IMG/VR virus record: IMGVR_UViG_3300042539_001740 | Length of the DNA stretch: 64,000 nucleotides | Source: a virus | Lineage: Duplodnaviria > Caudoviricetes | Reading direction: 5' to 3' (one strand) | Shown: one piece after another, positions 10,467 through 64,000 of the stretch | How positions within the stretch are numbered: position 1 is the stretch's first letter | Layout of the letters: the number at the start of each line of letters is the position of its first letter | The notes under the pieces: model-generated | Databases searched by the model: none | What the model saw: only the letters and a program-made list of their open reading frames with translations | What the model was told of the DNA's origin: nothing | Position numbers and translations under genes: made by a program

Positions 10467-11249
10467 ATGATTATTACACACGAAGGTAAAATTGTTGATT
10501 TGGGTGGAGTACCAGTCGTGTTAGGTGTTGATGTACCACCAACACCTTCGATTACTCCAACTATAACACCAACATTAACTATTACACCTACACCAACACC
10601 AACTAGTGGTGCAACATCAGCATTAAGGTTATTGATTTTAGGTGATGCTCAAGTATCAACAGTGTCAGGACAAGTTTCAAATGAAATTGTTTCCCTTGGT
10701 TATCCAACACCAACAATTTCAGCTGTAACAATTTCAACAACCTATAGTGGTACTGGTTTAAGTTCAAGTAGTTGGGATGTTGTGTTGTACTACACCAACT
10801 CTTCACAAACTGGTGCCGTTACCTTGAACACTTCTTTGAGGAACTATGTTGATAGTGGTGGTAATTTAGTTGTTGGAACATTTATTTGGAATCTTAGGCC
10901 AATAGGTTTTGATTTTACCTTAACACCTTATGTTGGTACTGTGAATCAAAGTAGTGACTCAACTGGTAATATGACAGTAACAATAGTACATCCAATAACA
11001 ACAGGTGTGGGGACTGGTTTAACAACTAATAGTACAGTACAAAATAATTTGGTAACAACTTTACAAAGTGGTGCAAATACAATTGCTACATATACAACAT
11101 CAGGATATCCAATAATTGGTATTAATACAGTTGGAACAGCAAGATTAGTTGGTATTAACCTTTATTTCCCATCATATATTGCAACTCGTGCTAATTTAAG
11201 AAGATTAGTTACAAATGCTGTACTATGGGCGGGTAAAGTTTTGAATTAA
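10467..11249 (+). CDS. PT-linker protein with class-I GATase/ThuA-like C-terminal fold
   Basis: PPTPSITPTITPT linker, then LLILGD...WDVVLYY...LRNYVDSGGNLVV...LVTNAVLWA. Confidence 0.55.
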   Translation: MIITHEGKIVDLGGVPVVLGVDVPPTPSITPTITPTLTITPTPTPTSGATSALRLLILGDAQVSTVSGQVSNEIVSLGYPTPTISAVTISTTYSGTGLSSSSWDVVLYYTNSSQTGAVTLNTSLRNYVDSGGNLVVGTFIWNLRPIGFDFTLTPYVGTVNQSSDSTGNMTVTIVHPITTGVGTGLTTNSTVQNNLVTTLQSGANTIATYTTSGYPIIGINTVGTARLVGINLYFPSYIATRANLRRLVTNAVLWAGKVLN

Positions 11250-11264
11250 CAATATTTATAAAGT

Positions 11265-13289
11265 ATGAGTGCAACACCTAATGTAAGAGGAGAAAAAATT
11301 TTTGGTTCAATAACTGGTATTACCTTATTTTCGGCAACGACAATAAGTGGTGGAACTTTATATGGTGATGGTAGTAACTTAACTGGAATTGTTGGTGGTT
11401 CAGGTACTTCAATAACTGGAGGTACATTTTCAAATGGAAATTTAACACTAAATAATAGTACTGGTGGTACAATTGTTATTTCAGGTTCTGCCCCATATAA
11501 TGCAGGTTTGATAACAAATGCAACAGGATGGACTGATAATAATAATGGAACTCTAACTTTACCTCAAGTTACCGTTGCATTATACAATAATTCAAATTTC
11601 ATTGAACCATTAAAAGTTTATATAGTTCCAAGTGGGACAACTGGAAGTGGTGGAATACCAAGTTTATTTGATGAAGACACAAGTTATGTGGTTATTGAAT
11701 ATAATGGAGGTAGTCCAAGATATTATGTTTATGATAATGATTCTGTAATCACCGATAGTGATGTTGTGTTATTTATGATAACCTACAGAAGTGGTAATTT
11801 TGTGCATGTTTTAGAATTTGATAACTATGGAGCAGGATTACCAAATAAGATAAATGATAGAATTTTATCAACTGATAGATTTGCAAGAGAATCAGGATTT
11901 TCATTGGGCTTGAGTGGTTCGACTGGTGTCGTTACATTATCTGCAGGTGTTGCATGGAATGGGGTCTATCGTCAAGCATTACCCCAACTTAATTCTCAAG
12001 ATGATATATTTTTTCAAAGTTTTCATAGTGGTGGAACTTGGGTTTATACAACAACTGCTAATACTCTGAATAACGAATATTATGACGATGGTACAGATAA
12101 GGTTTTGGCTACAGCTGGTAAGTATTTGGTGAATTGGTATTTCAGGGGGCAAGAAGTGAATGACCACTTATATGAAGTTTGGGGTAATGATGAATATGAT
12201 AGTGTTGCAGAAGCTCAATTATCAGTAGAACCAAGTTTACCCGAATTAGTTACATCTCATGCCTTCTTAACAGGAAGAATAATTGTACAAGTTAGTGCAA
12301 CAACTGGTTCAGTTGAGAGTGCTTTCGTTAGTGTATTTCAATCAACACAAGTTACCGCACATAACGATTTAAATGCAATTCAAGGAGGTAGTGCTGGAGA
12401 ATATTTTCACTTAACTTCAACACAATATTCAAACAATGCTTACACAAATGTTGATAATATTTTTTCAGTTGGTCAGACAATTAATGGTGGTGTAACCGCA
12501 ACAACCTACTATGGTAGTGGTGCAAACTTATCAGGTTTGACTGATGTATTTGTAACTGGGGGAACATATTCAAACGGAGATATTTTATTTAGAAATAATA
12601 CTGGTGGAACATTTAATGTAAGTGGACTTACTCAAGGTACTTTAACAGGTACTGGTGTTACGAATTATTTAGCTAAATGGAATGGTGTTAACGAATTAAT
12701 TGATAGTCAAATTATTGATGATGGTACTGATATAACTTTTGGTGGGAATAGTGTAACTTTTACGGCAGATGTTAATATCAGTGGTACTACAATTATTGAT
12801 GATGATGTTATCATTTACAACGGATTAACCGCAAGTACAATCTCTGCAACCACTTATCAGAATTTACCAACGGATGTTTTTGTTACAGGTGGAACTTATT
12901 CAAATGGTACAACAACATTCACAAATAACACAGGAGGTACATTCAATGTATCAGGATTTTTTACTGGTTATACTAATGTCGTTAATTCTTTAACAACTGG
13001 TGTAGGTCTGTCTGCAAATACAACATCAGGTAATGTAACAATTATTAATACAGCACCTGACCAAACTATAACATTAAGTGGTGGAACTGGTATTACAACA
13101 GGTGGGACTTATCCAAACTTTACCATTACCAATTCATTACCAGACCAAACTGTGACATTAAGTGGTGGTACAAATATATCTGTAACAGGTACTTATCCAA
13201 ATTTCGATATCAGTTTTACAGGTTCAACAACATCAACATTTGATTATGGAAAAACTTACGCAATATCAAATAGTTATCAATTAATATAA
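11265..13289 (+). CDS. Putative tail-fibre protein
   Basis: 674 aa Thr/Gly-rich. Contains two VFVTGGTYSNG..F.NNTGGTFNVSG modules and tandem PDQT.TLSGGT.I..TGTYPNF repeats. Confidence 0.65.
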   Translation: MSATPNVRGEKIFGSITGITLFSATTISGGTLYGDGSNLTGIVGGSGTSITGGTFSNGNLTLNNSTGGTIVISGSAPYNAGLITNATGWTDNNNGTLTLPQVTVALYNNSNFIEPLKVYIVPSGTTGSGGIPSLFDEDTSYVVIEYNGGSPRYYVYDNDSVITDSDVVLFMITYRSGNFVHVLEFDNYGAGLPNKINDRILSTDRFARESGFSLGLSGSTGVVTLSAGVAWNGVYRQALPQLNSQDDIFFQSFHSGGTWVYTTTANTLNNEYYDDGTDKVLATAGKYLVNWYFRGQEVNDHLYEVWGNDEYDSVAEAQLSVEPSLPELVTSHAFLTGRIIVQVSATTGSVESAFVSVFQSTQVTAHNDLNAIQGGSAGEYFHLTSTQYSNNAYTNVDNIFSVGQTINGGVTATTYYGSGANLSGLTDVFVTGGTYSNGDILFRNNTGGTFNVSGLTQGTLTGTGVTNYLAKWNGVNELIDSQIIDDGTDITFGGNSVTFTADVNISGTTIIDDDVIIYNGLTASTISATTYQNLPTDVFVTGGTYSNGTTTFTNNTGGTFNVSGFFTGYTNVVNSLTTGVGLSANTTSGNVTIINTAPDQTITLSGGTGITTGGTYPNFTITNSLPDQTVTLSGGTNISVTGTYPNFDISFTGSTTSTFDYGKTYAISNSYQLI

Positions 13290-27275: not shown

Positions 27276-29993
27276 ATGATTACACCTGAAGAAATCGAAA
27301 GTTTCTTAAACGGAAACGACCCCGAAGAGCACATCGTTGCCATAGAATATGATTGGGCAACAGAAAACATTTTCAAAATCAAAGAAATCCCTGGAAAAGG
27401 GAAAGAAATTAGAAAAGATACATTCACCCCATTTGCTTGGGTTGGTGACCTCCACGGACTTAACTTTTACAAATCATCCAAAGGACTTCAAAAAGAAGCA
27501 ATGACCAAACACGGAATCCTAATTGAGAAATTGGATACTGGTGGAAATGAACGATTAGAAAAAGGTCTAAAGTTTTTGGTTAAATCTTTAAAAGGATATA
27601 GAAGTTTAATGCAATTCTTCAAAGAAGGAGGAATTGACCCATATGGAGATAATACTAAAGAATACTTCCTTATACCATCACCAGTAGAACAATACCTTAT
27701 CCAAAAGGAAAAAAGATTGTTTAAGGGTTATGAAGAATACAATGACATTACAAGATTAGGATTCGACTTAGAAACGACCTCTTTAGAACCTAAAGATGGT
27801 CGAATCTTTATGATTGGAATCAAAACAAATAAAGGACTACAAAAAGTAATCGAATGTGCCAATGAAGACCAAGAACGAGCTGGTATTGTTGAGTTCTTTA
27901 GAACAATAGATGAAGTTAAACCATCAATCATTGGTGGATACAATTCATTCAACTTCGACTGGTATTGGATTATGGAAAGATGTAAAGCTCTACATTTGGA
28001 TATCAAAAAGATATGCAAAACTTTACATCCAGAATATAATATGAAACAAACCAAGGGTATGTTAAAACTTGCTAATGAAGTTGAGGAATATACACAGATT
28101 GGAATGTGGGGATATAATGTTATTGATATTCTACACTCCGTTAGAAGAGCACAAGCAATCAACTCAAACATCAAATCCGCTGGTCTTAAATATATTACCC
28201 AATACATCAATGCTGAAGCTGAAGACCGAGTTTATATTGGACATACTGATATCGGTTCAATGTACGCCAAGAAAGAAGAGTATTGGTTAAATGTTAAGAA
28301 TGGTAAATACAAAAAGGCCGACAAACCTGAATACAACGACTTGGATAAAAAATATCCTGGTATCTATATCAAAACAACTGGTGATAATATTGTTGAACGA
28401 TACTTGGATGATGACTTGGAAGAAACCTTGAAGGTGGATGATGAGTTTAATCAAGGAACATTTATGTTGGCATCGATGATTCCAACAACATATGAAAGAG
28501 TTTCCACCATGGGGACAGCCACTTTGTGGAAGATGCTTATGATGGCTTGGTCTTATAAGTATAAATTGGCCATCCCCCAAAAAGAACAAAAGAAAGATTT
28601 TGTTGGTGGATTATCAAGATTGTTAAGAGTGGGTTATTCGAAGGATGTATTAAAACTTGACTACTCATCTCTTTATCCATCTATTCAATTAGTACACGAT
28701 GTTTTCCCTGATTGTGATATTATGGGGGCTATGAAAGGTATGTTGTCTTATTTTAGAAGTGCTCGTATCAAATACAAGAACTTAGCAGCTGAATGGTATG
28801 ACAAGGATAAGAAAAAATCATTGTCCTACGATAGAAAACAATTACCCATTAAGATTTTTATCAACTCAATGTTTGGTGCTTTATCAGCTCCACAAGTGTT
28901 TGCTTGGGGTGATATGTATATGGGTGAACAGATTACTTGTACAGGAAGACAATATCTTCGTCAAATGTTAAAGTTCTTTATGAAGAGGGGTTATACTGCG
29001 TTGGTATGTGATACGGATGGTATGAACTTCTCATTACCTGAAGGTGGTGTTGATGATAGAGTTTATATTGGTAAAGGTCTTAATTGGAAAGTTAAGAAAG
29101 GAAAAGAATATAAAGGTTATGATGCTGATGTTGCTGAGTTCAACGACACCTTTATGAAGGGTGAAATGGCATTAGATTGTGATGGAACTTGGAAATCTTG
29201 TATTAATCTTGCTCGTAAGAATTATGCAACGATGGAACATAATGGTAAAATCAAATTGACTGGTAACTCAATCAAATCCAAAAAACTTCCATTATACATT
29301 GAGGAATATTTGGATAAAGCAATTAGATTATTATTGGAAGGTGAGGGACAGAAGTTTGTTGAATGGTATTATGAATACTTAACTAAAATCTATAACAAAG
29401 AAATCCCCCTTCTTAAAATTGCACAAAGAGCAAAAGTTAAGTTGAGTATTAAGGATTATATTGAGAGGTCAAAACAAACAACCAAATCAGGTGGTGCCAT
29501 GTCTAGAATGGCGCATATGGAACTGGCTATTAAACACAATCTAAAGGTGAATCTTGGTGAGGTGATTTATTATGTTAATAATGGTGTCAAAGCAAGTCAC
29601 GGAGATGTTCAAAAGAAGAAAGATGAAGTGGTATTAAATTGTTATATGTTAAATCCAAATGACATTGAGAATAATCCTGATATGTTGGGTGATTATAATG
29701 TAGCAAGAGCAATAACAACTTTCAATAATCGTATTGAACCTTTATTAGTTGTATTCAAACAAGAAGTTAGAGATACTTTAATTATTGATAACCCTGAGAA
29801 AAGACAATTCTATACACAACAACAATGTGAACTAATTAATGGAGTACCATTTGAAGAAAAAGACCAAGATAGAATCAAAGAGGATTTGTTAGATTTAGAA
29901 CCAAAAGAAATAGAGTATTGGAACAAAAGAGGAATTGACCCCAACTATATTTACGATTTGGCTGAAGAAGGATGGGAACAATATATTGATTAA
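27276..29993 (+). CDS. polB: Family B DNA polymerase
   Basis: ExoI FDLETT, ExoII GYNSFNFD, motif A LDYSSLYPSI, motif B KIFINSMFG, motif C CDTDG. No intein-sized insertion. Confidence 0.97.
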   Translation: MITPEEIESFLNGNDPEEHIVAIEYDWATENIFKIKEIPGKGKEIRKDTFTPFAWVGDLHGLNFYKSSKGLQKEAMTKHGILIEKLDTGGNERLEKGLKFLVKSLKGYRSLMQFFKEGGIDPYGDNTKEYFLIPSPVEQYLIQKEKRLFKGYEEYNDITRLGFDLETTSLEPKDGRIFMIGIKTNKGLQKVIECANEDQERAGIVEFFRTIDEVKPSIIGGYNSFNFDWYWIMERCKALHLDIKKICKTLHPEYNMKQTKGMLKLANEVEEYTQIGMWGYNVIDILHSVRRAQAINSNIKSAGLKYITQYINAEAEDRVYIGHTDIGSMYAKKEEYWLNVKNGKYKKADKPEYNDLDKKYPGIYIKTTGDNIVERYLDDDLEETLKVDDEFNQGTFMLASMIPTTYERVSTMGTATLWKMLMMAWSYKYKLAIPQKEQKKDFVGGLSRLLRVGYSKDVLKLDYSSLYPSIQLVHDVFPDCDIMGAMKGMLSYFRSARIKYKNLAAEWYDKDKKKSLSYDRKQLPIKIFINSMFGALSAPQVFAWGDMYMGEQITCTGRQYLRQMLKFFMKRGYTALVCDTDGMNFSLPEGGVDDRVYIGKGLNWKVKKGKEYKGYDADVAEFNDTFMKGEMALDCDGTWKSCINLARKNYATMEHNGKIKLTGNSIKSKKLPLYIEEYLDKAIRLLLEGEGQKFVEWYYEYLTKIYNKEIPLLKIAQRAKVKLSIKDYIERSKQTTKSGGAMSRMAHMELAIKHNLKVNLGEVIYYVNNGVKASHGDVQKKKDEVVLNCYMLNPNDIENNPDMLGDYNVARAITTFNNRIEPLLVVFKQEVRDTLIIDNPEKRQFYTQQQCELINGVPFEEKDQDRIKEDLLDLEPKEIEYWNKRGIDPNYIYDLAEEGWEQYID

Positions 29994-30222: not shown

Positions 30223-30501
30223 TTAAAACTTTGTCTCTAAGTACGATAATGCTCGGGATACTTTAACCCAATCTTTTTTTCTGATACCTTGTTCAAGCAA
30301 ATCTATAACGATATCAACCTTTTTTGTTATTTTACCTGACAACTCACCCGATGAATCATCCAATTGTACATCTTCATCATCACCAAGTCTTGAGTACAAT
30401 TTGTCTATTTCTGAATGACCATAAACTCGTTCAAGTTCAGTAACAACTTTCTTAGTTAGTTTTGATAAATCTTTTTCTGTTATTTTTACTACTTTTTTCA
30501 T
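30223..30501 (-). CDS. Hypothetical protein
   Basis: 92 aa, N-terminus MKKVVKITEKDLSKLTKKVVTE; upstream TATTTAT (30516-30522). Confidence 0.7.
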   Translation of the reverse strand: MKKVVKITEKDLSKLTKKVVTELERVYGHSEIDKLYSRLGDDEDVQLDDSSGELSGKITKKVDIVIDLLEQGIRKKDWVKVSRALSYLETKF

Positions 30502-30934: not shown

Positions 30935-32056
30935 TTAAATTACATAAATTTGTCTTGGTAAAGCAGTAAGTTTTTTTACTTTATTTAAGTTTTCAGCTAT
31001 TAATGCTTCTCTTTCCATAACCTTTTCAGGTTTTAATCTTGTTAATTTACCTTCAGCACCAATTAATTCCTCTCTCAATTTGTCTTTTTCGTCCTTAGCT
31101 TCAGTTTGTAAAGTTTGATATTCTAATGTAAGTTCGGCATCAGGTGTTTTGAGTGCACCACTAAACTTACCTCTAACTCTAGACAAGGCCTCTTTAGCAT
31201 AAGCAAAAAACCATTTACGAACCCATATTTGGGCAGGATTATTTAAATCAATCCAACTAATCTTTTCTAGTGGAACATCAGATGGTAATCTAATTATATC
31301 AGGATTTTTCTTTAAACAATCATCTCTGTCTGCACCATCAACTTCATAATACCAATACCAAACTTTACCTCTCATTAAAGTTGCATTACCGAAGTCAAAT
31401 TTACCACCTGGTGTTTGCATTAAATGGATTGCTTTTTTACCTTCAGGTAAAGCCGTTACTCTGTATGTTAAGTCACCTGCAATAATTCTTCTTTGAATAT
31501 TAATTTCTTGCATTCTTAATAACATATCGAATGCTGGCATCATAAAGTATGAACCTGAGTAACCCATTTGAGAATAACCCGCGGGGCCACCTAAACCAAC
31601 ACCACCCAAAGCACCAAATGTCCAAGGGTCAAATAGTAAGTTATTAAGTTCTGATGGTGTAAACCATAATAGCTCATTTAATTCACGACCTGCTGGTATC
31701 TCATAAATTTGTTGACCAGGTACAAGTTGTATATAGTCCTTTTTCATTACAGAATCTCCACCTGCTTGTAAACCAACAATTTTAGAATAAGCATAAGTAT
31801 ATCTTTCCTCGAACTTTAAATCTTTAGTTATGAATGCTTTGGTTAAAGATTCAGTATCTAAGTTTAAGTTATATAGTGAAGTCCATTGTGATTCAATTAA
31901 CCAATCTTGTACGTATTGAGCATAATCCTCAATAGATAGTTCTAATAAAGAATCTAACATTTCATCTTCCAATTCCACAGCCCTTAGTGGTGCACCTAAA
32001 AGATGTCTCAATTTAGTGTAAAGTTGGGTTCTATCTGGTTCAGGAATTATAGACAT
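30935..32056 (-). CDS. Neck/head-completion protein (T4 gp13-like)
   Basis: LRHLLGAPLRAVELEDEMLDSLLELSIEDY N-terminus and WVRKWFFAYAKEALSRVRGKF C-terminus are typical of gp13-like adaptors. Confidence 0.7.
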   Translation of the reverse strand: MSIIPEPDRTQLYTKLRHLLGAPLRAVELEDEMLDSLLELSIEDYAQYVQDWLIESQWTSLYNLNLDTESLTKAFITKDLKFEERYTYAYSKIVGLQAGGDSVMKKDYIQLVPGQQIYEIPAGRELNELLWFTPSELNNLLFDPWTFGALGGVGLGGPAGYSQMGYSGSYFMMPAFDMLLRMQEINIQRRIIAGDLTYRVTALPEGKKAIHLMQTPGGKFDFGNATLMRGKVWYWYYEVDGADRDDCLKKNPDIIRLPSDVPLEKISWIDLNNPAQIWVRKWFFAYAKEALSRVRGKFSGALKTPDAELTLEYQTLQTEAKDEKDKLREELIGAEGKLTRLKPEKVMEREALIAENLNKVKKLTALPRQIYVI

Positions 32057-32078: not shown

Positions 32079-34697
32079 TCAATCCAACAAATTAAGTATG
32101 TCTTGTTTGAAGTTTTCGTTGTCAGACAAACTATGGATAATATCTTGTGGTATATTACCACCTAAGTTTCTTATGTTGTACTTACTCCCAAAACGATTAA
32201 GTAATGATAATGTTTCTTTTGTTTTTTCATTACCAACTAAAAAATCAATATATTCTTGTTCTGAGATTATTGGGAAATATATTTTTCCAACCAATCTATT
32301 TCCTTCACTTGGTGTTTTTTGGAAAACTGATTTTTTGAATCTAATCTGTTGTGACCCTTTGGTTTTTGGTGCACCTAAATTACCAGGTTCTAAAGCCAAC
32401 GATTTAATTCCCTCTCTGTCAAAATAAAATAAGTCGATGTTAAAATTCTCGTTGGGAACACCGATTAATAATCCATCAATGTCAGGTAGTATGAAATCAA
32501 CTAAATCCTCAGCAATATTTATATAATCGTTGTTACCCGAACTTATTAAAAAACTTAGAAGATTTTCATTTTTTGCTTGTGTAATCAACATTTGTTTGTT
32601 TTCATCAGAACCATTATAATTCTCGATAAAACTTTGTATATTTCCTTTTGCTGATTTCAATACAGGACTTTCACTTAAATTTCTTACTATTTTTATAGAT
32701 ATTTTTTTTCCATCTTTTGTAATCAAATCATATGGAGAATTAATGTCTTCAGAAATATCTCCATCAATTAAACCGGAAATTAAACCTTCAAAATCTAAAC
32801 CTCTCGTTCTACTTCTATAAAATCTATAATAGTAGTTATTGAACCTATATTTATTTCTGTCCGAAACTGTTGATAAGTTTAAATTAAATAAAGAATCAAT
32901 TGTTCTACTAAAATTTAACTTACCACGACTTATTTCAGCTGTTACAATATTATTAATTGCTTCTTTAGCCGCATTCATTTCAGTGGGAATAGGTCTTAAC
33001 TTTTGTAATTCTCTTTTAATGATACTATTAATATCTAACTGATTATTATTAATCTTAATGTCCTCGGATATTAAAAAATTCATTATTTGAGCTTGTTCTT
33101 TAGTTATTATTATTGTTGAGTTCATATTTTCAGTAATGTTAATTTTTTTTAATTTTAAAAATTGGGATTGGAATTTTTTATTTTTTGAATTAAAAACGTA
33201 AGAATATCTTTCTTTTGATTGTGTTCCACCATCCTCAATATCAACCTCATTAAAATCAAAAAATATATAGTTATTTTTATCATCAACAAATGCAAAAATT
33301 TGAATATTATTTGTATTATATACATTTTTACTTTTGAAGATATAGATAGTATTACCTTGTTTGTCCCTCGTTTCATATAAATCCGTAGTTGGTTTAACCT
33401 GAACGTATTTACTTACACCATCTTCGGTTACAAACATATCTTGTCCTTTATACTTGTCCCTTGTATCACCATCACAAAATTGTGTTATTTGTGAATTTTT
33501 GTTTTTAGTGTTGAATATTTCAATCGCAATTTTTTCCCTTTCAATACCTCTATCCAAAGTTCCTTTTTTTGTTTTTGGATTTAAAACTATATTTGCCAAA
33601 CTATTGGTAAACTTTCCCTCATCACCAAACAGAGTTTTTCCCATAATATTAAACCAAGTTTCCAAATCATAGTTTTTACTATTATATTTTTCATAAAACT
33701 CTAATATCTTATCACTAATTCGAGTGTTAGCATCAAACCAATTAACAACCGACCATTCACCAGTTCCACCCCTTTGACTTACAGCATATTTTCCACCAAT
33801 AACACCATAGTTTGTTTTACATAACTCAGTTTGGATTTTACCATAACAAGGTGATTCAATACGAGTATCAGGATTGTAATCCCTAATAATTTCAGGAGAA
33901 CATTTTGGATAAACTTTCTTCAATATTGTTTGAACAAAAATAGGATTTAGTCTTCCGTTTGGGTTTAATACCTCAACTTCTTCTTTGATTAATTTTTTAG
34001 TTTTAACTGATTCAGTTAACTTAGTTTTCTTTTTATCTGTATATAATTTATTAACAAACTCCCAATTGACAACATCCCAAAAATTTTCAATATATTCATC
34101 TCTTTTGTTTTGATATTTGAGATAATATGCGTGTTCCCATACATCAAGACCAAGAATAGGAAATCCACCCCCATCAACTATGTTCATTAGTGGATTGTCT
34201 TGGTTGGGTGTTGACATAATTTTAAGTCTGTTGTTTTTTGTCAATATTAACCAACACCAACCTGAACCAAATCTATCCTTTGCTATTTCGGTGAATTCTT
34301 TTTTGAATGTATTAATTGAACCGAAATCTTTAATAATTTTGTTTTTTATCTCAGTTGGTATTTCTTGTTTTTTTGGGGACAACATTTTCCAAAATAAAGC
34401 ATGATTAAAAGCACCACCAGCATTATTCCTTATTGTTTTATTATACTTCGAAATGGATTTAATAATGTTCTCCAATTCAACATCACCATAGTTCTTTTTA
34501 GATAAGGCTTTATTCAATTTATCAACATAACCTTTATAATGTTTGTTGTAATGTATATCCATCGTTTTTCCATCGATGAAACTACTAATTGAACGATATC
34601 CAAATGGTAATTTATCAATACCAATTTTTTTTGCTTCAGATAATATATCTTCTTTAGTTAATATTATTTCTTTAAGTAAATTTGCTGCTCTTTCCAT
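32079..34697 (-). CDS. sod: Fe/Mn superoxide dismutase fused to two C-terminal PD-(D/E)XK-like domains
   Basis: SOD ligands intact (IHYNKHY, NHALFW, DVWEHAYY), plus FGSGW and NQDNP. About 640 additional residues follow. ATG at 34697 is preferred because it follows TATTTAT at 34703-34709. Confidence 0.85.
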   Translation of the reverse strand: MERAANLLKEIILTKEDILSEAKKIGIDKLPFGYRSISSFIDGKTMDIHYNKHYKGYVDKLNKALSKKNYGDVELENIIKSISKYNKTIRNNAGGAFNHALFWKMLSPKKQEIPTEIKNKIIKDFGSINTFKKEFTEIAKDRFGSGWCWLILTKNNRLKIMSTPNQDNPLMNIVDGGGFPILGLDVWEHAYYLKYQNKRDEYIENFWDVVNWEFVNKLYTDKKKTKLTESVKTKKLIKEEVEVLNPNGRLNPIFVQTILKKVYPKCSPEIIRDYNPDTRIESPCYGKIQTELCKTNYGVIGGKYAVSQRGGTGEWSVVNWFDANTRISDKILEFYEKYNSKNYDLETWFNIMGKTLFGDEGKFTNSLANIVLNPKTKKGTLDRGIEREKIAIEIFNTKNKNSQITQFCDGDTRDKYKGQDMFVTEDGVSKYVQVKPTTDLYETRDKQGNTIYIFKSKNVYNTNNIQIFAFVDDKNNYIFFDFNEVDIEDGGTQSKERYSYVFNSKNKKFQSQFLKLKKINITENMNSTIIITKEQAQIMNFLISEDIKINNNQLDINSIIKRELQKLRPIPTEMNAAKEAINNIVTAEISRGKLNFSRTIDSLFNLNLSTVSDRNKYRFNNYYYRFYRSRTRGLDFEGLISGLIDGDISEDINSPYDLITKDGKKISIKIVRNLSESPVLKSAKGNIQSFIENYNGSDENKQMLITQAKNENLLSFLISSGNNDYINIAEDLVDFILPDIDGLLIGVPNENFNIDLFYFDREGIKSLALEPGNLGAPKTKGSQQIRFKKSVFQKTPSEGNRLVGKIYFPIISEQEYIDFLVGNEKTKETLSLLNRFGSKYNIRNLGGNIPQDIIHSLSDNENFKQDILNLLD

Positions 34698-34720
34698 AAG
34701 ATATAAATATCTCATAAATA

Positions 34721-36487
34721 TTAACGAACAGAATTAATCTTGTTCATAATTTGCTCAATGAACTCCGCTCTATCAATATTATCACCCATAACAGTATCAA
34801 TAACATTCTTTTTATTAATCAACATATCATAGATAACACCTTCAATCGTATTATCAAATAATGGATAATAGACTGAAACACAATTCTTTTGACCATATCT
34901 ATAGGCTCTATCCTCAGCTTGTTGGTGATGTGCGGGGACAAAAGATAAGTCATTAAATACAACAGCTTCACCTGCAGTTAATGTAATACCAACTCCTGCA
35001 GCTTGTAAGTTCCCAACAAAAACTTTAACCTTATCGTTATCTTGGAATTGGTCAACAGCGTATTGTCTTTGAACCTTTGAGCAAGTTCCATCCAAATAAA
35101 CAGCTTTCTTTCCAAAGTGAGAATGAATCTTATGTAGAGTATCTGTAAAGTTTGTGAATATGATAACTTTTTTACCAAGTTCCAAAATATTTTCAACAAC
35201 CTCAATTGTATTCAATATTTTTTCTTCAGCAATTACTTGTCTAACTTTCATCAACTTATTAAACTGAACTGTTAAAGACCTCGATTCATCAGGATGTTTA
35301 TTATACCATTCGTAATACTCACCCATTAACTCTTCATACATTTTAGATTTTAATCTAAGATAGATTGGGGTAATAATCTTTTCAGGTAAATCTAGTACAT
35401 CCTCTTTTAATCTTCTTAAAACTTGTCTTGATGTCCTATCTCTTAACTCTTCCAAGTTTGACGCCCCATTCACATTCCAAACCTTTCTATTACCCGCCTT
35501 AAATTGATATCCTTGACAATAACGGATAACATAAGCCATCCAATTTTGAGCAACAGGACTTTCAATTAGATTCAATAAATTATAATAGTTGATTGGCCTT
35601 GATGTCATCGGAGTACCAGTTAATAACCAAAGATATTCAACATCCTTAACAAAACTATTAATTAATTTTGTTCTTTGAGCTTGGGGATTGGATATGTAAT
35701 GAGCTTCGTCTATAATAACCAAATCAAAGTTACCTTTTGTGATTGGGGAGTTTTCTTTGTTTTTTAAATCATAAAAATTTTTAATGATATCATAATTTAC
35801 AATAACAAAGTCGTGTTCAGTTGAGAAGTTTTTACCTTCACAAATATATACACTTCTATCTGTGTAGTTTTTAATTTCCCTTTCCCAATTTATCTTAAGG
35901 GATGCAGGACAGATAATTAAAATCTTTTTAATATCAGTTTCTAATGCTGCGATTATAGTACTAGTCGTTTTACCAAGTCCCATATCGTCAGCTAAAATAA
36001 ATCTTTTACTACCCACCAATTTTTCTATTGCGGTTTTTTGGTGTTCAAGTGGTGGTCTGTGACTATATTTTGTATAATCAATTTTAACTTCTATTGTATT
36101 ATGGGTTTTTAATAATGCTGCCTTAGGTAACCACATATCTGTTAGAGTGTCACCAGTATTAAATTTACCCCAAATATGGTATGATTTATCTTTATCAACC
36201 AATAACTTTTCAACCCAAATATCAGTTGGTACTGATAACATATTTTTTTCATCAGCAATCTTGTTTGCAAAATATGGTTCCATATTAACCCACTTCTTTG
36301 CAACCTTTGGTTCAACAGAATGATAGTTGATAATATATTCAGCTTGGGAACGAGTGGGGTAAAACTTTTTATTGGATTCCTTTAGGTATTTTAATTTTTG
36401 AATATAGTTATTTGTTCCCGAATAATTATCTAATATGTCGAGTGCTTTTAATTCAATAAGATTAGAGGTGTTACCTGATATATTCAA
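34721..36487 (-). CDS. SNF2-family (SMARCAL1/ZRANB3-like) helicase
   Basis: ILADDMGLGKT, IIDEAH, LLTGTP, GVGITLT and QAEDRAYRYGQ. TTG start. Confidence 0.92.
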   Translation of the reverse strand: MNISGNTSNLIELKALDILDNYSGTNNYIQKLKYLKESNKKFYPTRSQAEYIINYHSVEPKVAKKWVNMEPYFANKIADEKNMLSVPTDIWVEKLLVDKDKSYHIWGKFNTGDTLTDMWLPKAALLKTHNTIEVKIDYTKYSHRPPLEHQKTAIEKLVGSKRFILADDMGLGKTTSTIIAALETDIKKILIICPASLKINWEREIKNYTDRSVYICEGKNFSTEHDFVIVNYDIIKNFYDLKNKENSPITKGNFDLVIIDEAHYISNPQAQRTKLINSFVKDVEYLWLLTGTPMTSRPINYYNLLNLIESPVAQNWMAYVIRYCQGYQFKAGNRKVWNVNGASNLEELRDRTSRQVLRRLKEDVLDLPEKIITPIYLRLKSKMYEELMGEYYEWYNKHPDESRSLTVQFNKLMKVRQVIAEEKILNTIEVVENILELGKKVIIFTNFTDTLHKIHSHFGKKAVYLDGTCSKVQRQYAVDQFQDNDKVKVFVGNLQAAGVGITLTAGEAVVFNDLSFVPAHHQQAEDRAYRYGQKNCVSVYYPLFDNTIEGVIYDMLINKKNVIDTVMGDNIDRAEFIEQIMNKINSVR

Positions 36488-38365: not shown

Positions 38366-41300
38366 ATGTCAAACAGTAAAGTTTTCGTATCTCCTGGTGT
38401 CTATACTTCTGAGGTCGATTTAAGTTTTGTGTCACAAAGTGTGGGCGTAACAACTCTTGGTATTGTTGGTGAAACCTTGAAAGGTCCAGCCTTCGAACCT
38501 ATTTTTATTACAAACTTTGACGAATTCACAACGTATTTCGGTGGTACTTCCCCTGAGAAATTTATAAACACTCAAATACCAAAGTATGAAGCCGCTTATG
38601 TAGCCAAAGCATACTTACAACAATCTAACCAATTATTCGTAACAAGAATTCTTGGGTTATCAGGTTATGATGCAGGACCTTCTTGGTCTATATCTACGGT
38701 TGCTAATGTTGACCAATCAACTGTTGGGTTTGATTGTTCAAGTGCTTCAACTGTAAGTTGTATTACACAATGTGTTGAATTTAAAGTTAGTAGTTATACA
38801 ATCAATTTTACTGGTTGTACAAATAGTATTAACTCTATTTCATACACAACATCAATACCGGCACTTCTATCGGGTGACTTATATAGTACATATGAGTTAT
38901 TTAATGGGTCAACCTCAACGATTGATTCTGATATAAAAAATCAGTTATTCAATATTTTAAACACCCCATCAACATCAGCAACATCAATAAACTATTTTGG
39001 TACAGTATCAGGTGGAACTATTGATACATTATTATCAGGGTACACTTCTCAAAATAATGTGTTTGGTGTTGATAACATTAGTTCGGATTTGGCCGACTAT
39101 ACTGCAGCCGTTAATGATACTTGGTATTATGCAACTTTTGATAATATTGGAAATGGTCAATATTCGGGTTATTCTTTTTACGATTATGTTAATAGTTTAA
39201 CACTAACATCATCGTTATCAAATTGTGCATCATTTTATAGTTACTCAGTAAGTTCTCCAACTATCACTACAGTTACAGGTGCAATCAATTACAATACAAA
39301 TGTAATTAATGTTTGTCTTCCATCCACAGCAACTACAGCTGACGTAACTGCAATGACTATTAATTTCAGTGCTTGTACTAACCCAGCATTAAGTGGTATA
39401 ACAAGTGGTGGTGTGGTACAATCGGCAACAACAGTTGGTTATAATTTTAGTTCTTTGACTAAATCATATACAATAGTATCTGACGATTTGACAGCAACTT
39501 CAGCTTGGACTGTTAATTTACTTTTCACAGACCCATGTGGTGTTTGTACAACAGGTAATACAGGAACAATTCAAACAGGTACAATCACTAATTGTTATAG
39601 TGGTAGTATAACTGGTAACATATACATTTATAGTGGTACAGCATATACAGATTATGATGACTTGGTAATAGCAACACTACGTTCAAGAGGTATTGCAACT
39701 TATGGTACAGATAATGGTGCCGTATATGAGGTCAGTGGATTAACTGACGTTAGTATGGATTGTACTGGCACATATTCAGCGGTTACTAAAAATCCATATT
39801 CAACATTTGCACTTAATGTTACTAATAAAGATGGTGATAACTTTACTTTCGAAACATCATTTACTAATTCAGACCCTAAGTATATTGCTAAAGTATTCGG
39901 TTCAAGTAACTTTGCAAAACCAAGAGCAACAACACCATTGTTTGTAGAAGAAAGGTTCCAATCATTATTAAACTATGGTTATAGAAAAGGTTACATTAGA
40001 GGTTTGAATTGTGACTTGATTGCATTACCAAATGCAAGACAAGAGGTAGACGCAACTTCAATAGCTTTCTACTTAGAAAGATACCAATCACCAGTTTCTC
40101 CATGGGTTGTTTCTGAACTTAGAGGTAACAAAGTATTTAATCTATTCAGATTTACAACGATAGCTGATGGGGATGCTGCAAATACAGAAGTAAAAATTTC
40201 TATGGCAAATATGTCATTCAATAATGGTACTTTTGATGTTCAAATTAGAGATTTCTTTGATAGTGATTCAAATCCTGTTGTATTAGAGAAATTTACAAAT
40301 TGTTCAATGAATCCTAATGAAAATAATTTCATAGCTAAAAAAATTGGAACTAAAGATGGTGAATATGCTTTGAACTCCAAATTTGTAATGTTAGAGATTA
40401 ATGAAGATGCACCAATCGATGCTTTACCTTGTGGTTTCGTTGGTTACAATATGAGAGAATATGCTGGTGCAAAATCACCATTCCCAATTTACAAAACTAA
40501 ATATGATTTCCCTGGTGAAGTTGTATACAATCCACCTTTCGGGTTAGCTTCAGGTGCTGATGATGCTTTAAGAAGTGCTGGTGACAATGTTAGAAGAACA
40601 TATTTAGGTATTTCTGATACAGTTGGTTACGATGTTGATTTCTTCACTTACAAAGGAAAACGTTTACCAGGTTCAAGTATCTGTGATGCAACTACTGGGG
40701 CTGATTGGTCTTATAGAACAAAAGGTTTCCATATGGATAAAGACGCTTCAGGTATTACTATTGCTAACTCGTTTACTACAAGTGGTACTGCTGAGTTTTA
40801 TGTTGGTAGTGGTACATTCACAAGTGACCCTAGTGATGAAACAAATCCTTACTACAGAATATTTGCACGTAAATTTAGTTTCTTGTGCTCAGGTGGTTTC
40901 GATGGTTGGGACATCTACAGAGAACGTAGAACTAATGCCGATAACTTTATTTTGGGTAGAAGTGGTTATTTAAGAGGTGCATGTCCATCGTTCAGATATC
41001 CAACAGCAACAGGATGGGGTGCATTCAAAACAATAACAGTTGGGAATACAACTCAAGATTATGCTAATACTGACTATTACGCTTACTTGTTAGGTCAACA
41101 AACATTCCAAAATCCTGAAGCGGTTAATATAAATGTATTCGTAACAACAGGTATTGATTATGTAAACAATAGTAACCTTGTAGAAGCAGCAATAGAAATG
41201 ATAGAATTTGATAGAGCTGACTCAATTTACATCACAACAACACCTGACTACAATATGTTAGTACCAACAACGGGTGAACAAACTGATGTTATTTATCCAC

Positions 41301-41959
41301 AAGAAGCTGTTGATAACTTAGAAACTGCGGGTATAGATTCTAACTACACGGCAACTTACTATCCTTGGGTATTAACAAGAGATACTGTTAACAATACACA
41401 AATCTATATACCACCAACTGCTGAGGTTTGTAGAAACTTAGCTTTAACTGATAATATTGCTTTCCCTTGGTTTGCTGCGGCAGGTTATACAAGAGGTATT
41501 GTTAACGCAATCAAAGCGAGAAGAAAACTTACACAAGAAGAAAGAGATACTCTATACAAAGGTAGAATTAATCCAATCGCAACTTTCTCTGATGTAGGAA
41601 CAGTTATTTGGGGTAACAAAACTATGCAAATTAGAGAATCTGCTCTTGATAGAATCAACGTAAGAAGATTGTTATTACAAGCAAGAAAACTTATATCTGC
41701 AGTTTCAGTTAGATTGTTGTTCGAACAAAATGACGAAAAAGTAAGACAAGATTTCTTAGATGCTGTCAATCCAATATTAGATGCTATCAGAAGAGATAGA
41801 GGTTTGTATGATTTCCGTGTAACGGTTTCTTCAGACCCTGCAGATTTGGATAGAAACCAATTGACAGGTAAAATATATATTAAACCAACTCGTTCGTTAG
41901 AATTTATAGATATTACTTTCTATATCACCCCAACAGGTGCTTCGTTTGAGAATATTTAA
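38366..41959 (+). CDS. Contractile tail sheath protein with large inserted domains
   Basis: N-terminal SPGVYTSEVD; C-terminal WFAAAGYTRG, INPI, VIWGNKT, RINVRRLL and IKPTRSLEFI. Confidence 0.95.
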   Translation: MSNSKVFVSPGVYTSEVDLSFVSQSVGVTTLGIVGETLKGPAFEPIFITNFDEFTTYFGGTSPEKFINTQIPKYEAAYVAKAYLQQSNQLFVTRILGLSGYDAGPSWSISTVANVDQSTVGFDCSSASTVSCITQCVEFKVSSYTINFTGCTNSINSISYTTSIPALLSGDLYSTYELFNGSTSTIDSDIKNQLFNILNTPSTSATSINYFGTVSGGTIDTLLSGYTSQNNVFGVDNISSDLADYTAAVNDTWYYATFDNIGNGQYSGYSFYDYVNSLTLTSSLSNCASFYSYSVSSPTITTVTGAINYNTNVINVCLPSTATTADVTAMTINFSACTNPALSGITSGGVVQSATTVGYNFSSLTKSYTIVSDDLTATSAWTVNLLFTDPCGVCTTGNTGTIQTGTITNCYSGSITGNIYIYSGTAYTDYDDLVIATLRSRGIATYGTDNGAVYEVSGLTDVSMDCTGTYSAVTKNPYSTFALNVTNKDGDNFTFETSFTNSDPKYIAKVFGSSNFAKPRATTPLFVEERFQSLLNYGYRKGYIRGLNCDLIALPNARQEVDATSIAFYLERYQSPVSPWVVSELRGNKVFNLFRFTTIADGDAANTEVKISMANMSFNNGTFDVQIRDFFDSDSNPVVLEKFTNCSMNPNENNFIAKKIGTKDGEYALNSKFVMLEINEDAPIDALPCGFVGYNMREYAGAKSPFPIYKTKYDFPGEVVYNPPFGLASGADDALRSAGDNVRRTYLGISDTVGYDVDFFTYKGKRLPGSSICDATTGADWSYRTKGFHMDKDASGITIANSFTTSGTAEFYVGSGTFTSDPSDETNPYYRIFARKFSFLCSGGFDGWDIYRERRTNADNFILGRSGYLRGACPSFRYPTATGWGAFKTITVGNTTQDYANTDYYAYLLGQQTFQNPEAVNINVFVTTGIDYVNNSNLVEAAIEMIEFDRADSIYITTTPDYNMLVPTTGEQTDVIYPQEAVDNLETAGIDSNYTATYYPWVLTRDTVNNTQIYIPPTAEVCRNLALTDNIAFPWFAAAGYTRGIVNAIKARRKLTQEERDTLYKGRINPIATFSDVGTVIWGNKTMQIRESALDRINVRRLLLQARKLISAVSVRLLFEQNDEKVRQDFLDAVNPILDAIRRDRGLYDFRVTVSSDPADLDRNQLTGKIYIKPTRSLEFIDITFYITPTGASFENI

Positions 41960-42018: not shown

Positions 42019-42080
42019 TAATTAAATATCCTATATTTATATGTAGATTGGTGTTTGTTACATTAAAAAATAATTTACCT

Positions 42081-43604
42081 ATGAAAATTGAATTAAAATG
42101 TATGAATTGTACGAATATGTTTGTTACAGATTATAAACATAGAGATAAAAAATTCTGTGATAGAACTTGTTATTTTGAGTATGCTAAAAAAAATAAGATA
42201 CTTGGTAAGGAGAAAGATGAAAGCGTGAGGGAAAACAGAACTTGTATCCAATGTGGTAATAGTTTTACAGAAAGAAAAAAACACGAAAGAAAACTTTGTT
42301 CCAATGAATGTAGAACAATTTGGAATAAAAAAGAGGTCAATAAAGAAAATAGAATTAACAAGTCGAAACAAGTGTTATATGAAAAGTATGGTGAGGATTC
42401 TTTATTCAAATTAGATGAGTTTAAAAAAAATAGAGATAAACTTTTCATAGAGAAGTATGGAGTTAAGAGTCCTATGTATTTACAAGAATTTGTGGATAAA
42501 TTAAAAAACACAATTAAAATAAAACATTTAGACAAACTACTCCCCAAATTAGATGAACAAAATTTGAAGTTATTAGATGATTATAAACAAAATAAAAATG
42601 GTAATACCTCACAATCTTATACTTTCGAGTGTACTAAATGTGAAAACATTTTTAGTAGTACATTATTAGGTAGTGGTAAAATACCAATCTGTAGAAAATG
42701 TTACCCAATTACCAAAAATTCCAACTTAGAACAAAAAATTAAAGATTTTTTAAATACGAATAATATAAAACATATTGATGCCGACAGAAAAATATTAAAT
42801 GGTAAAGAAATTGATATTTTTTTACCCGATTTCAATCTTGGAATTGAGGTAAATGGTAATTATTTTCATTCTGAAATAAGTGGAGAAAAGACAAAATTAT
42901 ATCATATTGACAAAACGATTCTTTCGAATGATAAAAATATTAATTTGATTCAATTCTATGAAGATGAAATTATGTTAAAAACAGATATCGTATTATCTAA
43001 GTTATCGAGTAAATTGAATTTAAATAGTAAAATTTATGGTAGAAAATGTAATGCTCAAGAAATCACAAAAAAACAATCTATGGAATTTTTGAATGAAAAT
43101 CATTTACAAGGTTATACTATTGATAAATTTAGATATGGTCTTTTTTTTGAAAATGAATTAGTATCTGTAATGACTTTTGGAAAAAAAAGAAAATCGTTAG
43201 GTAATAAAGATATCATTTCTGACGAATATGAATTAATCCGATTTAGTAATAAAAAGTTCACTACAATTGTTGGAGGATTCTCTAAATTGTTAAAATATTT
43301 TATCAATAACATCAATCCACATAAAATAGAAACTTTTGCAGATATCAGATGGTCGGGTATTAATCCAAACAACACAGTTTATCACAAAAATGGTTTTCAA
43401 TATACATCAAAAACACCACCAAATTATTGGTATATTAAAACTGATAAATATCTAAATAGACATCATAGATTTGTGTTTAGAAAGGATGTACTTGTTAAGG
43501 AGGGTTATGATAAAAATATGACAGAGTGGGAAATTATGAAACTAAAAGGTTATGATAGAATTTGGGATTGTGGTTCGTTAAAATTTGAGCTATCATTACG
43601 ATAA
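42081..43604 (+). CDS. Hef-like free-standing homing endonuclease (Zn-finger repeats + EDxHD/Vsr-like nuclease + C-terminal GNAT-like domain)
   Basis: CxxC...KFCxxxC repeats, EIDIFLPDFNLGIEVNGNYFHS, and ENHLQG...YELIRF...GGFSKL...ADIRWS...WDCGSLKF. ATG at 42081 follows TATTTAT at 42034. Confidence 0.8.
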   Translation: MKIELKCMNCTNMFVTDYKHRDKKFCDRTCYFEYAKKNKILGKEKDESVRENRTCIQCGNSFTERKKHERKLCSNECRTIWNKKEVNKENRINKSKQVLYEKYGEDSLFKLDEFKKNRDKLFIEKYGVKSPMYLQEFVDKLKNTIKIKHLDKLLPKLDEQNLKLLDDYKQNKNGNTSQSYTFECTKCENIFSSTLLGSGKIPICRKCYPITKNSNLEQKIKDFLNTNNIKHIDADRKILNGKEIDIFLPDFNLGIEVNGNYFHSEISGEKTKLYHIDKTILSNDKNINLIQFYEDEIMLKTDIVLSKLSSKLNLNSKIYGRKCNAQEITKKQSMEFLNENHLQGYTIDKFRYGLFFENELVSVMTFGKKRKSLGNKDIISDEYELIRFSNKKFTTIVGGFSKLLKYFINNINPHKIETFADIRWSGINPNNTVYHKNGFQYTSKTPPNYWYIKTDKYLNRHHRFVFRKDVLVKEGYDKNMTEWEIMKLKGYDRIWDCGSLKFELSLR

Positions 43605-63915: not shown

Positions 63916-64000
63916 ACTAAAAGTAATATCACTATTTTCTGGTTATGGTACACAAGAGTTGGCACTGAAATACATTGGTGCTAACTATGAAGATGTTGCA
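63908..64000 (+). CDS. DNA cytosine-5 methyltransferase, N-terminal fragment (runs off the window)
   Basis: MNKLKVISLFSGYGTQELAL = motif I (SAM-binding FxGxG). Confidence 0.75.
   Translation, partial: MNKLKVISLFSGYGTQELALKYIGANYEDVA

Follow-up and report, generated by a model that had tools for sequence, protein, structure and literature searches.

A superoxide dismutase joined to two restriction-endonuclease-like modules in a T4-like jumbo phage: a candidate head-delivered polyprotein

Results

A three-module reading frame in a lake phage

We analysed a stretch of 64,000 nucleotides (the window) from the IMG/VR virus record IMGVR_UViG_3300042539_001740 (Duplodnaviria; Caudoviricetes), and in it a gene that joins a superoxide dismutase (SOD) to two further modules, here called D2 and D3. 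The record comprises 194,498 bases and is ~66% complete according to CheckV. Its source is a large, uncultured, T4-like jumbo phage from a lake, and among cultured phages, Flavobacterium phage immuto has the closest capsid gene. The gene is an uninterrupted open reading frame (ORF) of 878 amino acids, to which residue numbers refer, with its stop codon at 32079-32081. The probable start is the Met codon at 34697, which is favoured both by gene callers and by the N-termini of homologues and gives a product of 872 amino acids; a preliminary description of the locus, made from the sequence alone, had placed the end of the gene at this same position. The protein comprises a leader, the SOD domain and the two modules, each module preceded by a linker (Table 1).

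Table 1. Features of the SOD fusion gene, its neighbours in the window and the relatives bearing an HExxH domain
Feature	Position	Strand	Basis or remark
Whole ORF	32079..34715	-	ORF scan; start 34697 from homologue N-termini
Leader, residues 7-27, ending I-L-S-E27, then A	34635..34697	-	E27 conservation; further conserved (L/I)xE at E16
Mn-type Fe/Mn superoxide dismutase (by signature), residues 28-230	34026..34634	-	Pfam PF00081 and PF02777, ligands
Linker 1, residues 231-249, K-L-T-E235, S and L-I-K-E245, E	33969..34025	-	Motif conservation
Module D2, residues 250-520	33156..33968	-	AlphaFold2 model, fold matches, invariant residues
D2 N-terminal subdomain, fold without match, residues 250-386	33558-33968	-	AlphaFold2 model
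D2 PD-(D/E)xK-like core (by model), residues 387-520	about 33156-33557	-	E394, D426, Q439-x-K441
Linker 2, residues 521-573, N-I-T-E529, N and L-I-S-E551, D	32997..33155	-	Motif conservation
Module D3, residues 574-878	32082..32996	-	AlphaFold2 model, fold matches, invariant residues
T4 gp13-like neck (head-completion) protein	30935..32056	-	PHROG 211 head-tail adaptor; downstream of SOD fusion, 22-nt gap
SNF2-family helicase	34721..36487	-	PF00176 and PF00271; abuts SOD fusion upstream
Family B DNA polymerase	27276-29993	+	Near SOD fusion
Tail sheath gene	38366-41959	+	Near SOD fusion
HExxH-bearing relatives	L014-L067 (IMG/VR loci); P0038, P0039, P0041, P0044, P0056, P0070		Motif

The SOD domain

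Both halves of the SOD domain score well above the Pfam cut-offs: Sod_Fe_N (PF00081) covers residues 34-113 (E 1e-19, 70.9 bits against a cut-off of 27) and Sod_Fe_C (PF02777) residues 122-223 (E 5e-40, 136.1 bits against 20.9). The metal ligands H55, H105, D191 and H195 show no variation among 17 aligned relatives (alignment A1), which bears out the initial claim of a complete Fe/Mn SOD with all four ligands. Mn- and Fe-type enzymes differ in established signature positions; the stretches typical of the Mn type (G-G-x-x-N-H-x-x-F-W, and the Gln of an N-Q-D stretch in the C-terminal domain) are present here and invariant in the relatives. By signature the enzyme is thus of the Mn type, and its metal use may be cambialistic. 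The domain is ~45% identical to bacterial SodA-type genes (tblastn), relative to which the helical stretch of 21-27 residues at the N-terminus is extra.

D2 and D3 have restriction-endonuclease-like cores

Pairwise comparison of relatives shows that two independent units, D2 and D3, make up the 640 C-terminal residues. Neither has a usable sequence-profile match in Pfam, PHROGs or the PDB, and both belong to virus-only structure clusters. Weak Get1 and methyltransferase profile rows for the modules were at chance level and were dismissed. Foldseek searches of the PDB gave E-values of only about 0.02, below threshold; the top rows were nonetheless nucleases. The preliminary description had noticed two PD-(D/E)XK-like patterns in this region. 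They lie where it had put them, and their residues are invariant in relatives. In its model, each C-terminal segment forms a core of the PD-(D/E)xK type that holds conserved residues of catalytic type.

The AlphaFold2 model of D2 has a predicted local distance difference test score (pLDDT) of 92 (36-sequence alignment), and its leading fold matches (I-Ssp6803I, Hjc and NhoI) fall on model residues 148-282, in the C-terminal half. The best VIA-align match is I-Ssp6803I (Z 7.4, root-mean-square deviation (rmsd) 3.0, 101 residues aligned), followed by Hjc resolvases at Z 6-7 (Hjc 7.0) and by NhoI (Z 6.5), HhaI and DpnI at Z 5.7-6.5. The top six rows and most of the others are PD-(D/E)xK enzymes; the list also includes several tRNA-splicing endonuclease subunits and, lower down, a few unrelated rows. 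E394, D426, Q439 and K441 are invariant in the 36 aligned sequences, down to 22-30% identity, and make up the motif E394...G-Q-D426...Q439-V-K441 (about 33395-33536). In the model, E394 lies in helix 149-165, D426 just ahead of strand 188-192 and K441 at the end of strand 195-202, with the invariant Gln439 occupying the (D/E) position of (D/E)-x-K in strand 3. HinP1I may offer a precedent for Q-x-K; the string is absent from the review we consulted. The N-terminal subdomain of D2 (residues 250-386), which is modelled with confidence, has no atlas feature match, no named atlas cluster and no PDB row spanning it, and contains the conserved motifs G-V-I-G-G and W-S-x-x-N-x-F-D-x-N. A near-invariant pair of cysteines, Cys299 and Cys414, is also present in D2.

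In D3 the restriction-endonuclease-like core spans approximately residues 604-817 and includes E643, D663, S673-x-K675 and E682 (pLDDT 90, 29-sequence alignment). VIA-align places MspI first (Z 7.7, rmsd 3.7, 162 residues aligned), then ThaI (Z 7.6), HinP1I (Z 7.4) and NhoI (Z 7.1), with PvuII, NaeI and EcoRV ranking lower. Nearly all of the top 22 rows are restriction enzymes or other proteins of the PD-(D/E)xK fold, and a few unrelated ones appear lower down. E643, D663 and K675 are invariant among the 29 aligned sequences (22-30% identity minimum), and S673 and E682 nearly so. In the model, the motif F-E643-G...Y-D663...S673-I-K675 (about 32693-32789) puts catalytic-type residues at the canonical PD-(D/E)xK positions. 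Ser replaces the second acidic residue in D3 as it does in the active enzymes ThaI, NgoMIV/Ecl18kI and EcoO109I, which use this S-x-K variant (PMC3025569).

D2 thus resembles I-Ssp6803I and archaeal Hjc, and D3 resembles ThaI, MspI and HinP1I, in a common alpha-beta-beta-beta core whose first helix bears the Glu, with the Asp preceding strand 2 and x-K placed in strand 3. Unlike these enzymes, with which they have no detectable sequence relationship (Pfam, PDB sequence), D2 and D3 carry extra subdomains.

The leader and the linkers carry conserved (L/I)xE sites

The prohead protease of T4, gp21, cleaves after L/I-X-E (PMC9026906), and motifs of this kind occur in the leader and in both linkers. 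E27, at the end of the leader, is kept in 36 of 36 members of the close family. The same arrangement extends to the wider phage SOD family with an N-terminal extension, where (I/L/V)xE stands directly ahead of the (M/A/T)KKIGI SOD core in all 158 of 158 cases. In linker 1, E235 is kept in 40 of 40 relatives and the following S236 is invariant; E245 is kept in 28 of 33. When the wider family is restricted to proteins with a C-terminal extension, (L/I)xE is found at most 22 residues after SOD in 111 of 118, with Ser at P1' in 81 of these and a second site nearby in 91, while the 40 SOD-only forms mostly end ahead of this post-SOD cassette. Linker 2 keeps E529, followed by N, in 24 of 37 relatives; its residues 535-541 (I-I-I-T-K-E-Q) are a degenerate copy of the module tag described below, and the tag column is kept in 20 of 36.

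The preliminary description had proposed three (I/L)xE ends as cleavage points. All three exist, and two of them hold up across relatives (LSE27 universally, IKE245 commonly), whereas ISE551, kept in less than 50% of the relatives, is not conserved. The sites at E235 and E529, which are better conserved, had gone unmentioned. Judged by the alignments, the best-conserved junction sites are therefore LTE235/S and ITE529/N rather than ISE551.

Among 40 family members, seven conserved (L/I)xE columns (E16, E22, E27, E235, E245, E529 and the tag column of linker 2) fall within the ~90 residues of the leader and linkers, compared to three within the ~780 residues of the domains. What carries the motif signal in these alignments is conservation and position across relatives, not the count in one protein. 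Low model confidence is confined to the linkers (pLDDT 73 where the D2 model begins, 47-55 where it ends and 38-60 where the D3 model begins); being the only low-confidence stretches, the linkers should be accessible.

SOD is combined with exchangeable modules in relatives

An exhaustive search by HMMER and a word index gathered about 80 relatives. The fusion itself is present in about 40 sequence clusters (JGI, ENA, Logan and NCBI contigs) at 56-100% identity. A chimeric assembly, which had been named as a possible explanation of the fusion, is rejected because these are about 40 independent metagenome clusters whose contigs share the same arrangement.

The C-terminal cargo is swapped among relatives, as the preliminary description had thought worth checking, and SOD-only forms exist too. 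SOD followed by D2 occurs with D3, with a Cys-rich alternative module, with a second D2 (D2') or with nothing further. Other proteins consist of SOD and a module of 130-170 amino acids ('D4') or of SOD alone, and D2 or D3 also occur singly in proteins of about 300-350 amino acids. A third set of architectures begins with a domain containing an HExxH motif: HExxH+SOD+D3, HExxH+SOD+D2, and a different HExxH domain joined to D2. The first of these, in which the HExxH domain is followed by the leader, SOD and D3 (~698 amino acids), is the commonest form in IMG/VR, accounting for about 45 of 58 loci. The HExxH domains reach only sub-threshold Pfam scores (DUF6055 18 bits, Tox-MPTase2 13.7 bits).

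Many relatives, SOD proteins of 394 amino acids (P0136-P0159 and similar), have the module of ~130-170 amino acids behind SOD and its K-L-x-E/S cassette. This module contains the conserved stretches K-S-E-x-C and G-R-S-V-x-N-K-L-N-T-N-Y.

A tblastn search of 50,697 phage records yielded nothing beyond plain SODs and a single D3-like stretch, the latter from a 635-kb uncultured phage, and no cultured relative with a virion proteome was found among these records.

The head protease and the leaders of stand-alone modules

The phage encodes a gp21-type prohead protease of the Peptidase_S77 family (record 160136-160858, minus strand; PF03420, E 1e-23, 80.6 bits against a cut-off of 27), which aligns with T4 gp21 across the LNHP and SSRG active-site stretches. 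Its gp23-type capsid protein has S-F-L-I-N-E followed by A where T4 gp23 has S-F-L-T-E followed by A, a stretch that is the known gp23 cleavage site, after Glu65. Given both a gp21-type protease and a conserved gp23-type cut site, the T4 cleavage rule is reasonably transferable to this phage. The S77 protease was also found in two of three near-complete genomes with D3 homologues.

Stand-alone homologues of D2 and D3 have (L/I)xE within residues 2-20 in 34 of 44 cases, compared to an average of 7.2 and a maximum of 17 for interior windows of the same 44 proteins (2000 resamplings). The leaders that bring these sites are of several interchangeable types. One is the tag MKIIITESQ (M-K-h-h-h-T-E-S-Q). 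Another, represented by MKTYLQF..ILE, MKTYFNFLNE and MKYLKSFRIFE then S, closely resembles the capsid targeting sequence of T4 IPII/IPIII, MKTYQEFIAE then A (T4 record). On a 5.6-kb metagenome contig (L010:30-5595), a stand-alone D3 gene belongs to a gene run in which five members start with MK(I/V)IITE(S/E/A)Q; these include a Hydrolase_2 cell-wall hydrolase and a 48-amino-acid peptide with a PKGFSQRAHC motif.

Starts of this kind also occur on other ORFs of the phage studied here. A 92-amino-acid ORF two genes downstream of the SOD fusion (window 30223-30501, minus strand) starts with M-K-K-V-V-K-I-T-E-K-D-L, a variant of the MKIIITESQ-type leader, and similar starts are found in the record ORFs 10824-11282 (MKIIITEQQL) and 152405-152869 (MRITESQL), the latter adjoining the head module.

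Genomic surroundings

The SOD-fusion gene lies immediately upstream of the gp13-like neck gene in three of three genomes examined. Gene order is the same in two related contigs, L005 and L007, both of which keep the SNF2 helicase neighbour, and the gp13-like orthologue adjoining the fusion in them carries PF26809 (Phage_T4_gp13). The T4 late-promoter word TATAAATA occurs 18 times in the window against 14 expected, that is, without enrichment.

Several other features of the record may be mentioned. After the tail sheath gene, a 518-amino-acid ORF (42048-43604, plus strand) has strong matches to PHROG homing/HNH endonuclease families and matches below the cut-off to the Mom family and DUF7487. 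A C5 DNA methyltransferase (PF00145, E 3e-58) extends from window position 63917 beyond the last base of the window (record 56676-57608); it is separated from the SOD fusion by ~29 kb and is not adjacent to it. Beside the capsid gene (record 154570-156176, minus strand) are three small ORFs with a common N-terminal pattern, R-I-L-x-L-H-x-N.

Discussion

Our analysis establishes the domain identities and folds of the fusion protein, its conserved catalytic-type residues, the presence of a head protease in the phage, the conservation and position of the (L/I)xE motifs, and the modular shuffling among relatives. Reading these sequence features together, we propose, with moderate confidence, that the protein is cargo of a T4-like jumbo phage: a polyprotein targeted to the head and jointed by protease sites. 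It would be made late, alongside the neighbouring neck gene, and its helical N-terminal leader would bring it into the prohead core. There the gp21-type protease would cut after Glu in (L/I)-x-E, at E27 of the leader, at E235/E245 and E529 of the linkers and possibly at E551, to give three products: the Mn-SOD (~24 kDa), D2 (~33 kDa) and D3 (~38 kDa). The pieces would leave the capsid together with the DNA; in the newly infected cell SOD would quench superoxide, and D2 and D3, being restriction-enzyme-like, would cut or bind the DNA of the host or of a competitor. We infer in this scheme the time of expression, packaging, cleavage, ejection, the enzymatic activities and their targets.

The favoured mechanism would be the known T4 combination of a leader and gp21 trimming, extended to an exchangeable chain of enzymes with SOD as the constant unit. 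As in T4 with IPI-III and Alt, the genome codes for both a gp21-type protease and a gp23-type capsid protein whose cut site is conserved, the leader of the fusion protein ends in (L/I)xE followed by Ala, and D3 homologues bear near-copies of the T4 tag MKTYQEFIAE. As with Alt, the cargo would be enzymes delivered with DNA. There are also differences. Cargo proteins of T4 are single units with one N-terminal trim, whereas here three enzymes are chained by internal junction cassettes. In addition, the leader of 21-27 residues is dissimilar to the T4 tag and is internal in many relatives. We know of no SOD among T4-type head cargo.

A number of observations weigh against this proposal. The SOD-fusion gene is located ~70 kb away from the head-gene module and abuts the SNF2 helicase, and the late-promoter word TATAAATA was not found upstream of it on the coding strand. 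(L/I)xE is a weak motif, which helical linkers rich in Lys, Glu and Leu would carry anyway, and the whole protein has 13 such motifs against 10.6 expected from composition, that is, a chance-level number. The homologue counts given above derive from related sequences and not from independent events. Since the leader is internal in the commonest relatives, where it stands behind the zincin-like HExxH domain, it has no conserved role as an N-terminal address and may serve as a cleavable linker instead. A leader profile compared with all ORFs of the genome found no other match, the profile being built from three sequences and technically weak. The fold matches of D2 and D3 are middling (Z 7-8), which for D2 attests a fold but no function. 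Where the motif has its second acidic residue, D2 carries Q and D3 carries S, so that both modules are putative metal-dependent DNA nucleases. Finally, neither Peptidase_S77 nor Gp23 nor the protease of the phage studied here was detected in the 281-kb genome L071/G004, an IMG/VR record classed as a provirus and 94% complete, which has a distant D3 homologue with the leader MKYLKSFRIFE then SA.

Some of the same observations would be expected if the protein stayed in the cytoplasm as an uncleaved SOD-nuclease-nuclease chain, which we consider unlikely, though the strongest competitor. In this case the linkers would be flexible helical spacers, and (L/I)xE a by-product of their amphipathic Lys/Glu/Leu composition; SOD would be an auxiliary metabolic gene, and the modules would act in host DNA breakdown or phage DNA metabolism. 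The chance-level motif count and the lack of a recognised late promoter agree with this, as do the SNF2 helicase and the family B DNA polymerase among the neighbours and the occurrence of plain SOD genes in other large phages, e.g. the PA5oct group and a Vibrio phage. However, a cytoplasmic chain does not account for the invariance of E27, E235 and S236 amid linkers that otherwise vary, for a linker cassette found chiefly where something follows SOD, or for the interchangeable T4-tag-like leaders of stand-alone modules. Nor does it offer an obvious reason for covalent ties between SOD and nucleases in so many shuffled combinations.

Improbable to a greater degree, in our estimate, is that the protein is an effector of the polyvalent type that takes a route other than gp21. 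The N-terminal zincin-like HExxH domain of relatives would autoprocess the chain or mediate its encapsidation, roles of the kind proposed for P1 DdrB and N4 vRNAP, and the protein studied here would be a derivative that has shed this domain, either cut by another peptidase or left uncut. The abundance of the HExxH-leader-SOD-D3 form and the fusion of D2 to another HExxH domain fit this idea. So does the combination of an HExxH helix with a conserved Glu-containing helix, which agrees with the description of MPTase in polyvalent proteins (PMC5512222). A shuffled multi-enzyme architecture, with several unrelated enzymatic domains in one phage polypeptide, is a defining trait of that class, the zincin-like HExxH domain is its hub, and delivery with DNA has been proposed there as it is here (PMC5512222). 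On the other hand, the HExxH domain stays below threshold in Pfam and was not found in this genome, whose record is ~66% complete. Unlike polyvalent proteins (PMC5512222), the fusion protein itself lacks a peptidase domain according to Pfam, and its junctions bear the motif of a trans-acting head protease: they fit the specificity of gp21, and a protease of that type is present. The polyvalent-protein paper contains no occurrence of superoxide dismutase (PMC5512222). For relatives that do bear the HExxH domain, processing by a metallopeptidase, a route put forward for polyvalent proteins (PMC5512222), is a live alternative.

It is very improbable that the fusion is a recent run-together of separate tagged genes read from internal translation starts, with M531, ahead of I-I-I-T-K-E-Q, starting D3 alone: a Met just upstream of the module tag is conserved in the SOD+D2+D3 group and most relatives have a Met directly after the leader (E then M-K-K-I-G-I), but position 28 of this protein is Ala, no Met is found at the junctions between D2 and the alternative module, and in sequences with as little as about 56% identity the frame still runs open through the junctions, an argument for the fused chain being what selection maintains.

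Head-targeted delivery of the SOD fusion would have its nearest functional parallel outside bacterial viruses. Virions of the chlorovirus PBCV-1 set a precedent for such cargo: besides a Cu/Zn SOD (A245R) they contain two restriction endonucleases, and these proteins come into action minutes after infection (PMC7019647). Superoxide removal and DNA cutting would likewise form a virion-borne pair acting in the first minutes of infection by the phage studied here. PBCV-1, however, is a giant virus of eukaryotes, its enzymes are separate proteins and its SOD is of the unrelated Cu/Zn type; moreover, packaging has been shown experimentally for PBCV-1, whereas for the phage protein it is a prediction. 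Unlike in restriction systems, there is no methyltransferase adjacent to the SOD fusion. In the literature that we searched, neither an SOD-nuclease fusion nor an SOD as phage head cargo was found.

Two practical consequences follow from the modules and their junctions. D2 and D3 represent two virus-only, restriction-enzyme-like families for which Pfam has no model and which may have new specificities of DNA cutting. The junction cassette (K-L-x-E then S, then a second (L/I)xE) is a cheap test substrate for the specificity of gp21-type proteases outside T4.

It is tempting to speculate further, and here our confidence is lower, that a widespread freshwater clade of T4-like jumbo phages uses a leader-tagged Mn-SOD as the constant front of a capsid-delivered polyprotein, to which swappable virus-only modules are attached through protease-cut cassettes. 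If this is the case, the T4 scheme of address tag and protease cut would extend from three small internal proteins to chained, exchangeable enzymes, and superoxide removal would be an unexpected addition to the activities that phages inject. An oxidative burst or a defence linked to reactive oxygen species would then be indicated as a barrier early in the infection of freshwater, probably Flavobacterium-like, hosts. Each infection would begin with an injected kit of an antioxidant enzyme and DNA-cutting enzymes. Bacterial viruses would have in it their equivalent of the SOD and restriction enzymes packaged by chloroviruses, and phage head cargo its first known SOD.

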